31,201 bases of DNA from a bacterium (lineage in GTDB: Bacteria > Patescibacteriota > JACMRA01), in assembly GCA_043764135.1 (NCBI GenBank), contig JAYUKV010000131.1, positions 1 to 31,201 of the forward strand, given 5' to 3'. Shown here in pieces: positions 12,566 to 21,135 of this stretch. Made by a program: the position numbers and the translations under genes. Each line of letters starts with the position of its first letter. Position 1 is the first letter of the stretch. Under the pieces are notes generated by a model. That model did not search any database and had not been told where the DNA came from. It saw only the letters and a list, made by a program, of their open reading frames with translations.

Positions 12566-13174
12566 TTACAAAATTAATGTGATAAGCGCCTGATATAGTT
12601 CATCAGGTTCAATATACTTCGAAAGCTTACCTTTTTGATCTACCTTGAATTTAAGTTGAGTTTTATTACCTTTAAAATAATATTCCTCATTGTCTAGATA
12701 TTCAAAAAAAAGAACACCATCAACTTTATTTATTATTAACAAGTGTGGATGCCTAACTGAGATTTTACTAATCAACCTATCTATGTAAGATGCGTGTATT
12801 ACCATTAATATTTGAAAAACAAATATTATTCCAAGTGCAATAATTAACGCCATTGGAGCAATAACATTATGAAACACCAACAAAACAAATATACTTATTC
12901 CAACTACTGGAGAAGCAATTTTACCAAAATTTAGTATTCTTCCGTGAAACCTGGTCTTTTTTAGTATTTTTCTTTGTTTGATAGTAAGTTGAATAGCGTC
13001 AGGGTTATTGTAGTATACAACCTTTAAAGATCCGTCATTTAAATCTAGAATTTGATTAAGAACTTGGAAAAGCTTTGGATCAAATTTTCTGGCATAAAAC
13101 GGTTGTTTTATTTTTTTTGGGTTTTTTGTAAGTAAAACTTGTAACTCCCAATTCAGCTCATCAATTGTACACAT
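12566..13174 (-). CDS. Hypothetical membrane protein (2 TM), 202 aa
   Basis: Two adjacent hydrophobic segments (IASPVVGISIFVLLVF; VIAPMALIIALGIIFVFQILMVI). Confidence 0.75.
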   Translation of the reverse strand: MCTIDELNWELQVLLTKNPKKIKQPFYARKFDPKLFQVLNQILDLNDGSLKVVYYNNPDAIQLTIKQRKILKKTRFHGRILNFGKIASPVVGISIFVLLVFHNVIAPMALIIALGIIFVFQILMVIHASYIDRLISKISVRHPHLLIINKVDGVLFFEYLDNEEYYFKGNKTQLKFKVDQKGKLSKYIEPDELYQALITLIL

Positions 13175-18185: not shown

Positions 18186-18274
18186 ATTCAAACTAAAAGT
18201 GAGACTTTGAAATAGTTACAAATAAATTCAAGGACTAATTTAAAATTTTACATTTGCCAATTAAATAAGTTATT

Positions 18275-18437
18275 TATACTCAAACCACACCAACCCCCAT
18301 CTAATATAGATAGAAAAAATTGGATATAATAGTGACTATTTCAAGCTTCTTATGCTTTGCATAAAAGATTGAGATAGTAGCTATTAGATACTATTTTGGC
18401 ATTTAGATAAGGTGGAGGTTGGTATGGTTTGAGTATA
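18275..18437. repeat. 163-nt fold-back element (candidate MITE or 6S-like ncRNA)
   Basis: Arms TATACTCAAACCACACCAACC (18275-18295) / GGTTGGTATGGTTTGAGTATA (18417-18437) match 20/21; ATCTAA/TTAGAT extension; inner hairpin 18336-18377. Confidence 0.8.
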
Positions 18438-18440
18438 TAT

Positions 18441-18560
18441 GATGTTTTCGAACTTACCTCGCCCTTGGGGCACTCCTTTCAACCTTGAAAGGAGAGTTTC
18501 TTCGAGGCTGATTTATTTATGTTGTATCAAAGTAATTCAAATAGTAGAAATTCTACTTGT
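18441..18560 (+). repeat. Partial second copy of the 12192 element left end
   Basis: GATGTTTTCGAACTTACCTCGCCCTTGGGGCACTCCTTTCAACCTTGAAAGGAG aligns with 12192-12245 with few substitutions; similarity decays through TAGAAATTCTACTT versus TAGAAACTCTGCTT. Confidence 0.9.
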
Positions 18561-18662
18561 TTTTATTCCCATTTCAGGCGATTAAATAATTTTTGTGTTT
18601 GACATTTTTCATTAAATTCTGCATTGCTTAAAACTACTATTTAAAGCACTGGAGAAAATTCT

Positions 18663-19184
18663 GTGAATACTTCTGACTTAACAATCGCAATTAACACCAA
18701 AACTTCAAACTACGAATTGTATGTACTAATTCCTGAATGCTTAATAGGATATGATCAAACTATTATTGATCAATACGCACATTGCATTTTTAGAACTGTG
18801 GGTAAAAAACTACTATGCAGTGATAAAAATTCGGATAATATTAAAATTGAATCTAGGAGTGTTTTGAATTACTTTAGAACTTTAGGATTGGATGTTGATT
18901 ATCAACATTTATCAGTTGTAAGTTACACCTCCCTACTTTTTTTTCTCAAAATCAAAAAGCGAAGTTTTCTCAAACCCTTTAAATTCGAATCTTGTTCTTT
19001 TTCTCAAATATCAACTTTACAAGAACAGCTCTGTGATTTTTCACTGTCTCTTGTAAACTTGATAGATTCCCAATCGTTAGAAGCAATAATCAAGCATAAA
19101 ATTCCATTTGAAAATGTGTTCGATTCTGCTATATTTACACGATGTTTTGAGAGTGTAAATAGTAACAAATTTACCTTTGTATAA
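18663..19184 (+). CDS. Hypothetical protein, 173 aa (GTG start)
   Basis: GGAG SD 8 nt upstream, TTGACA at 18599-18604, terminator at 19201. Confidence 0.75.
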   Translation: MNTSDLTIAINTKTSNYELYVLIPECLIGYDQTIIDQYAHCIFRTVGKKLLCSDKNSDNIKIESRSVLNYFRTLGLDVDYQHLSVVSYTSLLFFLKIKKRSFLKPFKFESCSFSQISTLQEQLCDFSLSLVNLIDSQSLEAIIKHKIPFENVFDSAIFTRCFESVNSNKFTFV

Positions 19185-19200
19185 ACTAATAATGAATAAC

Positions 19201-19228
19201 ACTGACATATGCATGTCAGTATTTTTTT
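19201..19228 (+). terminator. Intrinsic terminator
   Basis: ACTGACAT/ATGTCAGT stem followed by A plus T7; the T-tract overlaps the next -35 box. Confidence 0.8.
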
Positions 19229-19255
19229 GACATTAATCTAATTGTAAAATATAAT
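19227..19255 (+). promoter_or_regulatory. Perfect consensus sigma70 promoter
   Basis: TTGACA (19227-19232)-N17-TATAAT (19250-19255). Confidence 0.85.
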
Positions 19256-19261
19256 AAAAGA

Positions 19262-19365
19262 GAAACACAGATTCGAAAAATATATCTACTACCAAACCTG
19301 GAAATTTTGGAAGAAGGTATCCTGGATTTTGATAATGATTAGCCCTTAGTGGGCTTTGTTTTTTT
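19262..19365 (+). ncRNA. Candidate orphan small RNA of about 100 nt
   Basis: Lies between a perfect promoter and a terminator; no SD-led ORF (the only ATG gives MISP*); family not recognised. Confidence 0.5.
19341..19365 (+). terminator. Intrinsic terminator oriented on the + strand, abutting the recJ 3' end
   Basis: AGCCC-TTAGT-GGGCT followed by TTGTTTTTTT. Confidence 0.75.
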
Positions 19366-19371
19366 GGCTCA

Positions 19372-21135
19372 TTAACGAGTTATAATTTTATCAATTATCA
19401 TTTGATTGGTAACATTGGAATTAAAAATATTCTTGCTTACTTTGAATAAAACAAAGATTGGCTTTGTTTCTTCAAGAATTAATTTGTCAGTTGTATCAAG
19501 ATTGAACATAACAAAACTCCATTTATCCATTTTTATTCTTACATGATTCTGGTGTTGACCCATATAAGTAATTGTGAAATTTGTGATTTTTGTTAAAAAT
19601 TTTGGCATTTGAAAATCTTGACCAAAAGGCTCTAAACTACTCAAGTCATTAAACAGTGATTCAGAAATGTCTTTGGGTTCTAGATATATTGTATTTTTGC
19701 GATTAAAGTCAGGTAGACTGAGGGATTGAGGAATATAGTTAGCTTTTGTTTCTGGAGTTGGGGTGTAGCCTGATAAAATTCTTTCGAATTCTTCCCCTAC
19801 TAGCTCACAATATTCATTTTCGCAGCTAAAACCAGCCGCTTCTGGATGACCTCCAAACTTCTTTAACAATCCCGGTTTTACTTGTTTCATTATTTCAACT
19901 AAATTATATCCTTTTGGTGCTCTTAGAGAAGCTGAAGAGTAAGACTCAGGGTCTTTGGAGATAACTACAGAGACTTTGTTATTCATATCTAATAATTTGG
20001 TTGCTATTAATCCTACTATTCCTTTTGAATAGTCTGTTATTAAATAATTACAATGTGTATCATCTTCGACTAGTGTTAAAGCGGTTGTTGATGCTTCTTT
20101 TACCATTTGCTTTCTTTGATTGTTTATATCGATGATTGTTTGGGCTAGGTTATGGGCTTCTTCTTCGTTTGAAGTGCATAATAACTTGATAGCAACATTT
20201 GCATGGTCAATTCTTCCTGCGGCGTTTAACATAGGTGCTAATGTATAACCTAAATCTTGACTTGATAGTAGTCCTAGCTCTATTTTATCTGATAATCCTG
20301 CTAAATTGATTAGAGCTTTTAAGCCTTTGAATTTTGACATTGATTGTGGAAACATTTTAAGACCTGCTTTTACCAATAGCCGGTTTTGGTTGTCTCTGAT
20401 TGACTGGCAGTCAGCAATTGTTCCAATTGCTACAAATGGAAGTAGTAGATTAAGCAAGTTAGGATTTAGATTTAAATGGTTTGTAAGATGTAAAAGACAA
20501 AACCACACCACACCTACCCCACATACAGATGGAGATACAAAATCTTCTTTAATCGGTAACCTAAACTCTTGATTACTAAAACTATTTTCAAAAGTGCTTT
20601 CCCTCATTCTTCTTGCAAGATAATTCTTTTGGTATTCTTCTGTAAGCCTTGGATTGATAACGGCCAGTGCTTGGGGAATTGTACCTGATAGAACGTGGTG
20701 ATCTGTAATTATTAAATCACATTCAGAATCTAGGCATATTGAGGCTTCTATAACTGAATTTATTCCGCAGTCTACTGATATTATTAGATCATTTGATTTT
20801 GCAAGTTTGGATATGGCTTCTGGATTAATTCCATATCCTTCAATAAATCGGTCCGGAGCATAATATGAAATCTTGTCAGGATTAAAACCTAACAGAATCA
20901 AGCCCCAATACATAGTTGCTGTCGCAGTTATGGCGTCTGCATCGTAGTCTGAATATATGCATATTTTTTCTTGCTTATCTAATGCTGTTTTAAGACGGGT
21001 ATTAAAGTGTTCAACTTCGACCAAATAAGGAGCTTGTATATCAAAACTCTCTCGATCTATACTTGTAAAGAACTTACTATACTTGCTTGTAGTAAATTCA
21101 AATCGATTAAGGTATTCAAGGAGCTTTATATTCAT
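19372..21135 (-). CDS. recJ: Single-stranded-DNA-specific exonuclease RecJ
   Basis: IYSDYDADAITA, PDRFIEGYG, ISVDCG, ITDHH, AIGTIAD, LAPMLNAAGRI, SLRAP, FGGHPEAAG, LEPFG. Confidence 0.95.
   Translation of the reverse strand: MNIKLLEYLNRFEFTTSKYSKFFTSIDRESFDIQAPYLVEVEHFNTRLKTALDKQEKICIYSDYDADAITATATMYWGLILLGFNPDKISYYAPDRFIEGYGINPEAISKLAKSNDLIISVDCGINSVIEASICLDSECDLIITDHHVLSGTIPQALAVINPRLTEEYQKNYLARRMRESTFENSFSNQEFRLPIKEDFVSPSVCGVGVVWFCLLHLTNHLNLNPNLLNLLLPFVAIGTIADCQSIRDNQNRLLVKAGLKMFPQSMSKFKGLKALINLAGLSDKIELGLLSSQDLGYTLAPMLNAAGRIDHANVAIKLLCTSNEEEAHNLAQTIIDINNQRKQMVKEASTTALTLVEDDTHCNYLITDYSKGIVGLIATKLLDMNNKVSVVISKDPESYSSASLRAPKGYNLVEIMKQVKPGLLKKFGGHPEAAGFSCENEYCELVGEEFERILSGYTPTPETKANYIPQSLSLPDFNRKNTIYLEPKDISESLFNDLSSLEPFGQDFQMPKFLTKITNFTITYMGQHQNHVRIKMDKWSFVMFNLDTTDKLILEETKPIFVLFKVSKNIFNSNVTNQMIIDKIITR

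Follow-up and report, generated by a model that had tools for sequence, protein, structure and literature searches.

A predicted small RNA gene beside recJ in a Patescibacteria lineage, with a candidate antisense target in the leader of an SLT-domain gene

A stretch of about 100 nt, lying between an orphan protein gene and a convergent recJ on a contig of an ultra-small, uncultured member of the Patescibacteria, is very probably a separately transcribed, stand-alone gene for a non-coding small RNA (sRNA). On comparison with related sequences, its best reading is as a new family of a known kind, a trans-acting antisense sRNA with a specific predicted target. The predicted RNA displays an invariant hairpin loop that is exactly complementary to a ribosome-binding region, itself invariant, upstream of a gene for an SLT-domain lytic transglycosylase, so that the sRNA probably regulates the SLT gene by pairing and not by titrating CsrA. 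We put the probability that it represses this muralytic enzyme by base pairing, with the target and the mechanism as specified below, at roughly one half.

The window, by which we mean the whole 31,201-nt stretch of DNA that was analysed, is a single contig (C131) of a metagenome-assembled genome of 1.39 Mb in 156 contigs, 85% complete and with a G+C content of ~31%. Translation table 11 leaves long genes such as leuS and recJ intact, which argues for the standard genetic code. A few public runs containing window DNA are labelled as algae metagenome, and the DNA runs contain only 5-13% of the sampled words.

Promoter, terminator and conservation of the unit

The unit opens on the + strand with a sigma-70-type promoter at 19227-19255, in which a -35 box TTGACA (19227-19232) and a -10 box TATAAT (19250-19255) are separated by 17 nt, matching TTGACA-N17-TATAAT at 12/12 positions. 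The original prediction had described this as the only fully consensus promoter that it found, which we confirmed for the scanned part of the window and also for the whole contig, which is identical to the window. The 5’-end of the RNA is predicted at ~19262, 7 nt past the -10 box. An intrinsic terminator on the same strand (19341-19365) begins ~80 nt past the promoter, with a stem AGCCC/GGGCU (19341-19345 with 19351-19355, 4/5 pairs being G-C), a loop UUAGU and a tail UUUGUUUUUUU, which reads TTTGTTTTTTT in the DNA and extends to 19365. The T tail is present on the + strand only. Promoter and terminator together enclose ~100 nt without a conserved ORF, and no ORF of at least 30 aa beginning with ATG, GTG or TTG lies inside the unit.

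Both neighbouring genes are set apart from this unit. Upstream lies a gene for a 173-aa orphan protein (18663-19184, + strand), to which belongs a terminator of its own, a hairpin and T-run at 19201-19226 (+ strand; stem 19201-19220, tail ATTTTTTT) that abuts the -35 box and separates the orphan gene from the sRNA unit. Downstream, and outside the RNA unit, recJ (19372-21135, - strand) runs convergently, its previously proposed identity being confirmed by Pfam domains DHH, DHHA1 and RecJ_OB. Family searches returned neither a family match nor homologues for the 173-aa orphan, and its predicted fold was poor and of low confidence. Further upstream, between a Band_7 gene and the orphan gene, we observed a 477-nt ORF-free gap (18186-18662) that contains a long fold-back (18275-18437) and a terminator-like hairpin (18473-18494), and that has no Rfam match.

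Across the source genome we counted 15 perfect TTGACA-N17-TATAAT matches, compared with 3 matches to the reversed pattern and a mean of 3.1 (maximum 9) for 40 composition-matched, letter-permuted hexamer pairs. Most of the perfect matches are therefore real promoters, and such a match usually marks a working one in this genome. The others were found upstream of tRNA gene(s), of leaderless genes and of two further RNA-like units. From the consensus promoter we infer that the sRNA is highly expressed.

Two further observations on transcription in this genome were made in the course of the analysis. Two paralogous loci of ~350-400 nt, L113 (G000:C10:1252-1700) and L114 (G000:C121:2841-3250), carry a perfect TTGACA-N17-TATAAT promoter and a terminator; they share conserved blocks at 75% column identity, have no Rfam match, and constitute a candidate second non-coding RNA family in the source genome. 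In addition, the region directly before start codons is enriched in TATAAT-like words genome-wide (e.g. C78:1228 and C135:1728) and an AGGAG-like motif was found at only ~6-10% of sampled gene starts, so that leaderless or very short-leader mRNAs seem to be common.

The original prediction had named conservation beside recJ in relatives as a way to check it, and homologous units were indeed found in three metagenome contigs of close relatives: L033, L036 (NCBI assembly GCA_051650445.1) and L112, whose RecJ proteins are 78%, 67% and 76% (cluster of P0003) identical to that of the window. In L033 and L036 the promoter-terminator unit is kept with recJ on one side and a diverged homologue of the orphan gene on the other, with the upstream-terminator layout also present, while in L112 the unit stands directly after recJ and comprises the -10 box and the terminator, the contig ending short of the -35 position. 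The -10 box is thus kept in 3/3 relatives and the -35 box in both contigs that reach far enough upstream (TTGACA/TATAAT in L033, TTGACG/TATAAT in L036), and the 17-nt spacing is kept with unrelated spacer sequences. In all three relatives the terminator hairpin has a different stem sequence that still pairs, followed by the tail UGUUUUUUU, and a 12-nt block, AACCUGGAAAUU, is invariant in the window and the three relatives. When a covariance model was made from nothing but the window sequence, L033 reached 45.8 bits and L036 36.4 bits, and noise did not exceed 20 bits; a model built from the window, L033 and L036 scored L112, which was not part of the model, at 55.2 bits. As an observation on the neighbouring protein, the orphan is 173-191 aa long and fast-evolving, and lies beside the sRNA gene in three lineages (the window, L033:4003-4527 and L036:3953-4528), with an identity to the window protein of 39% in L033 and 26% in L036.

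Beyond these relatives, searches for the unit were negative. A metagenome protein search recovered RecJ relatives at 64-78% identity, from sources named Patescibacteria, Gracilibacteria or SR1, and the unit was absent from the recJ-adjacent position in the other RecJ lineages (58-68% identity). BLAST of the unit against 40 relatives gave no match; the genomes of the family, whose RecJ proteins are 40-46% identical, have a different neighbourhood, in which recJ is followed by a co-directional ~125-aa gene. A RecJ search of the species-genome contig collection returned nothing. Pattern scanning for the promoter, the loop motif and a T-run gave 54 matches in metagenomes, all of which fell by chance in coding or unrelated DNA and none of which combined a -35 box with the second motif, one chance match among species genomes (Tannerella), none among viral contigs, and the source genome only in a class-wide scan of 27 genomes. 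Covariance model R2 gave marginal scores of 23-31 bits in the 27 class genomes, which on inspection were coding regions or bare terminators. Since neither pattern scans nor covariance searches gave convincing matches elsewhere, the family appears on present data to be confined to a narrow clade, so far one of genus level within a Patescibacteria lineage related to Gracilibacteria.

Two loci outside this set deserve mention. At L038:6745-6830 (- strand), a TATAAT box, an AGAUUAG-like 5’ part, one CCUGGAU and a terminator occur together, either as a degenerate relative of the sRNA or as a chance match; with its single CCTGGAT and a promoter spacer of 21 nt we found it unconvincing. As to recJ itself, matches to the protein fall into 2-3 separate frames, often on different contigs, corresponding to N-terminal DHH, middle and C-terminal OB parts, in genomes G002, G005, G006, G008-G011, G013, G015, G017, G020-G024 and G041, a pattern suggestive of a recJ gene that is split in some members of the family.

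Fold of the RNA and nature of the gene

From 5’ to 3’, the predicted RNA consists of a single-stranded tail, a hairpin, a second motif, a linker and the terminator, all on the + strand. The A-rich tail of ~20 nt (19262-19281) carries a semi-conserved AAAC.CAG.U..GA (alignment A5). The hairpin (19282-19320), conserved with covariation in four sequences, is composed of a 6-bp lower helix (19282-19287 with 19315-19320) and a 5-bp upper helix (19292-19296 with 19306-19310), closed by an apical loop CCUGGAAAU (19297-19305) that is identical in 4/4 sequences; the invariant 12-mer (19295-19306) spans this loop. The hairpin thereby displays CCUGGAAA(U) as its loop, and a second CCUGGA follows directly at the hairpin foot (19321-19328; alignment A5), L033 having CCUGAAUU where the other three members have CCUGGAUU. 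Near the terminator, a UAGCC is also conserved.

Support for this fold comes from base-pair substitutions, counted in an alignment of four sequences only that was fitted to the model structure. In this alignment 98% of the pair cells form standard pairs and 12/16 pairs change on both sides; the hairpin keeps 11/11 pairs, 9/11 of them changed on both sides, and in the terminator stem 3/5 pairs are changed on both sides next to an invariant U-run. By comparison, slid controls in which the partners were moved by 1-3 columns were 32-44% paired with 1-3 double-changed pairs, and none of 500 shuffles reached the observed pairing values. The folding energy of the window RNA is no better than that of shuffled sequence (z = -0.86), and the evidence for structure is therefore the comparison with relatives. 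A different, nested stem that had been proposed from the window sequence, ATCTA-C-TACC...GGTA-TCC-TGGAT, can form there but is not upheld by the relatives, in which 58% of its cells are paired, with no compensatory changes. Likewise, all three GGA motifs that had been reported are present (19300, 19308 and 19324), but only the first and the third are conserved, as CCUGGA, the middle one lying unconserved in the 3’ strand of the stem.

The unit was matched to no family when the whole window was searched with Rfam at gathering thresholds, and a search of 19150-19420 at E <= 10 gave only six matches, all at chance level and all to unrelated families. None of the reading frames stays open across the four sequences, which argues for an RNA gene and against a micro-protein gene. 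The conserved unit in three contigs, the covarying stems, the lack of a shared ORF and the lack of an Rfam match together bear out the earlier view of the stretch as an sRNA of unknown family.

We also weighed whether the unit might encode a micro-peptide, using a short or non-canonical ORF such as an 11-codon TTG-GAA-GAA... frame or ATGATTAGCCCTTAG. An ATG-led 19-codon frame does run through the conserved block in L036, but in L033 it meets a stop after 6 codons and in the window it lacks a start codon, none of the frames is open in 4/4 sequences, there is neither a Shine-Dalgarno motif nor a start codon at the predicted 5’-end, and the substitutions track base pairing and not codon position, making translation of the unit barely credible. 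It is also very unlikely that there is no gene here and that a promoter-like site has arisen by chance beside a terminator serving the neighbouring genes. Some 3 of the 15 perfect promoter matches are expected by chance, and the hairpin could help to stop recJ transcription; yet a separate terminator follows the upstream gene, the T tail is confined to the + strand, and the hexamers, terminator, hairpin and loop were kept while the spacers diverged and the orphan protein drifted to 26-39% identity.

As to the kind of RNA, the original prediction had offered a CsrA sponge as one option, and this option was not sustained. CsrA/RsmA (PF02599) was detected in 0/27 genomes of the class, including the source genome (85% complete), with matches in the control genomes; the Rfam models of CsrB, RsmY and RsmZ did not match the unit even at E <= 10; and in place of the multiple conserved GGA motifs in loops expected of a sponge, two are conserved, one of them in the hairpin loop. 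Because RF00169 is undetectable in the source genome, we also considered a divergent SRP RNA, a reading that is ruled out by the lack of an Ffh M domain and of SRP54-type GTPases. RF00169 had no match in the window, the source genome, 26 family genomes or 61 phylum genomes, the Ffh M domain (PF02978) was found in 0/26 genomes and the SRP54-type GTPase (PF00448) in 0/41 at E <= 1e-5, and neither the Ffh/FtsY GTPase nor the M domain was detected in the source genome, the family or 15 near-complete phylum genomes. The prediction that the unit is not an SRP RNA thus agrees with a lineage that appears to lack Ffh and FtsY altogether, and published work describes many CPR bacteria as lacking SRP subunits (PMC8080830). 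Hfq and ProQ were not found in a genome search, and the source genome does encode a KH protein of the KhpA type (C137:3911-4123).

Two candidate partners for pairing were examined and rejected. The E. coli-like UUCCAGG segment of rRNA is missing from the 16S of the source organism, the 3’-end of which reads GGAUCAACUCCUUUUU, and no consistent pairing emerged in three loci between the sRNA and the 5’ regions of the genes on either side.

A candidate target in the leader of an SLT-domain gene

The candidate target is a gene on contig C27 of the source genome (G000:C27, ATG at 12917) for a 223-aa product whose N-terminus is hydrophobic and which carries a Lys/Glu-rich linker and an SLT lytic-transglycosylase domain (PF01464); homologues of this product are called Rpf-like by their sources. 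Its leader contains AUUUCCAGG (12894-12902, positions -23 to -15 relative to the ATG), an exact 9-nt complement of the sRNA loop, and the resulting 9-bp loop-site duplex has an energy of -13.1 kcal/mol in all four lineages compared. The SLT gene was the top duplex match in a genome-wide scan, and among 861 confidently placed gene starts it is the only one with TCCAGG within -30 to +5; the other UUUCCAGG sites in the genome all lie inside long ORFs, leaving none other that is non-coding. The duplex energies of the whole sRNA are no better than those of shuffled sRNAs, so that the scan match is weak by itself, and a complement to the 9-mer in some leader has a chance expectation of ~0.2, as estimated from base composition.

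The site is placed where pairing could interfere with initiation. The SLT leader reads ...UUAGGUAUUUCCAGGAUACCAAAUACUACAUG, and the site overlaps its only Shine-Dalgarno-like motif, an AGGA located 13 nt from the AUG, a long distance for a Shine-Dalgarno sequence. A small leader hairpin, GGUAU[UUCCAGG]AUACC, contains the site, which is partly paired inside this hairpin in the minimum-free-energy fold of the leader. In the source genome only, the second motif and its flank can form a further 11-bp pairing (GGUAUCCUGGA with UCCAGGAUACC).

Conservation of the leader provides a test that is independent of the target scan. We compared the source genome with L116, from the same JGI sample as the L033 sRNA, and L117, from the genome of the L036 sRNA. 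Across these three lineages 41/44 leader columns (93%) are invariant (G000:C27:12866-12916; L115:567-617), beginning ~7 nt past a conserved TATACT -10 box, compared with 22% of columns in the upstream spacer, 34% in upstream coding sequence, 73% in the SLT coding sequence and 56% at its third codon positions. The leader hairpin and the site are also kept in a fourth lineage, L118. Judged by these columns, the SLT leader surpasses the coding sequence behind it in conservation and qualifies as a conserved RNA element independently of its role as a candidate target. Searches of the 26 remaining class genomes found neither the leader motif nor the sRNA; one match to the leader motif, in G011, was a chance match in a coding region.

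These features are those expected of a base-pairing sRNA: a conserved unpaired seed facing a conserved site in an initiation region, as indicated computationally, and a conserved, non-coding gene with its own promoter and Rho-independent terminator. Both partners being invariant, covariation between sRNA and target cannot prove the pairing.

We propose that the sRNA acts in trans, its loop pairing with AUUUCCAGG in the 5’ leader of the SLT gene (9 bp, about -13 kcal/mol). Pairing would probably start as a loop-loop kiss between the sRNA hairpin and the leader hairpin, and the resulting duplex would hide the ribosome-binding site, lowering translation and/or stability of the SLT mRNA. The second CCUGGA may serve as a redundant seed, and the conserved UAGCC near the terminator could contact the 5’ UGGCU of the leader as a second short pairing. 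The absence of Hfq, ProQ and CsrA fits such a chaperone-independent mechanism, directed from a loop to a Shine-Dalgarno region. It is also possible that pairing activates the SLT gene by opening the leader hairpin.

The same observations can be accounted for in other ways. The sRNA may be real and conserved and its match to the SLT leader coincidental, in which case its targets would lie elsewhere or its role would be a different one, for example within a ribonucleoprotein or as a ligand-binding RNA. The target was after all picked by a scan in which ~0.2 matches of this length are expected by chance and in which shuffled sRNAs give duplex energies as good, and the proposed pairing makes no use of the conserved AAAC.CAG.U..GA tail and of UAGCC. 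However, coincidence would have had to place the site in a leader more conserved than its own coding sequence, overlapping the Shine-Dalgarno-like motif, with no other non-coding UUUCCAGG in the genome, and we regard it as a minor, though real, possibility. The leader might, for its part, be conserved for some other reason, such as a protein-binding site. Alternatively, the two CCUGGA motifs may work as those of CsrB and RsmY do, titrating a dimeric RNA-binding protein other than CsrA. The same hexamer does occur twice in exposed positions, in a loop and in a single strand ~20-24 nt apart, CsrA dimers can bridge dual sites of certain spacing, which the spacing seen here resembles, and the genome encodes a KhpA-type KH protein. 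Against this, CsrA is missing in 27/27 class genomes and no Hfq or ProQ was found, two motifs are few beside the many in known sponges, the locus offers no candidate partner (the 173-aa neighbour having no recognisable fold or family), and the exact complement in a conserved leader would be left unexplained. Such titration therefore seems rather unlikely, and repression of the SLT gene by pairing is the reading that we carry forward.

Relation to known systems and biological meaning

Hfq-independent sRNAs of low-GC Gram-positive bacteria, such as S. aureus RNAIII and RsaE and B. subtilis RoxS, pair hairpin loops with Shine-Dalgarno regions. The present sRNA resembles them in having its own sigma-A/70-type promoter and an intrinsic terminator, in not needing Hfq, in exposing two copies of a short motif, one of them in a hairpin loop, and in a predicted site that lies in a hairpin loop at a ribosome-binding site, where initiation would be loop to loop. 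It differs from them in its seed, CCUGGA(AAU) as opposed to their C-rich UCCC/CCCC, and in its Patescibacteria host; it shares no sequence or Rfam kinship with them, and it has one candidate target, predicted computationally. Loops on both partners that offer 7-9 complementary bases are also found in OxyS-fhlA, CopA-CopT and RNA I-RNA II, and in fhlA, as here, the target loop holds the ribosome-binding site. Unlike in these kissing-loop antisense pairs, the present target is trans-encoded, on another contig, and the kissing geometry comes from predicted folds only. With CsrB, RsmY and RsmZ the sRNA has in common GGA motifs in a hairpin loop and in single-stranded RNA and a small stand-alone transcription unit. 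Known CsrA-sponge sRNAs, however, carry about 5-22 GGA motifs, compared with two conserved motifs here, and this genome and 26 relatives are without csrA.

A full-text literature search found no description of small or non-coding RNA in ultra-small CPR/Patescibacteria. A much bolder proposal, which we consider doubtful, is that the two partners form the first sRNA-mRNA regulatory pair in CPR, in which an abundant kissing-loop sRNA would restrain a secreted lytic transglycosylase used by an episymbiont to breach or remodel a wall, its own or that of its host, and would thereby switch a cycle of attachment or predation. Should the gene alone prove real, it would be a further lineage-specific orphan sRNA and of modest interest. 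The 9-nt loop and the leader site upstream of a peptidoglycan-cleaving enzyme, both invariant, make up a concrete and falsifiable pair, in a lineage without the usual sRNA chaperones and even without a signal recognition particle. If the pairing is true, such reduced genomes would keep post-transcriptional control of a cell-wall hydrolase, and RNA catalogues would gain a new family.
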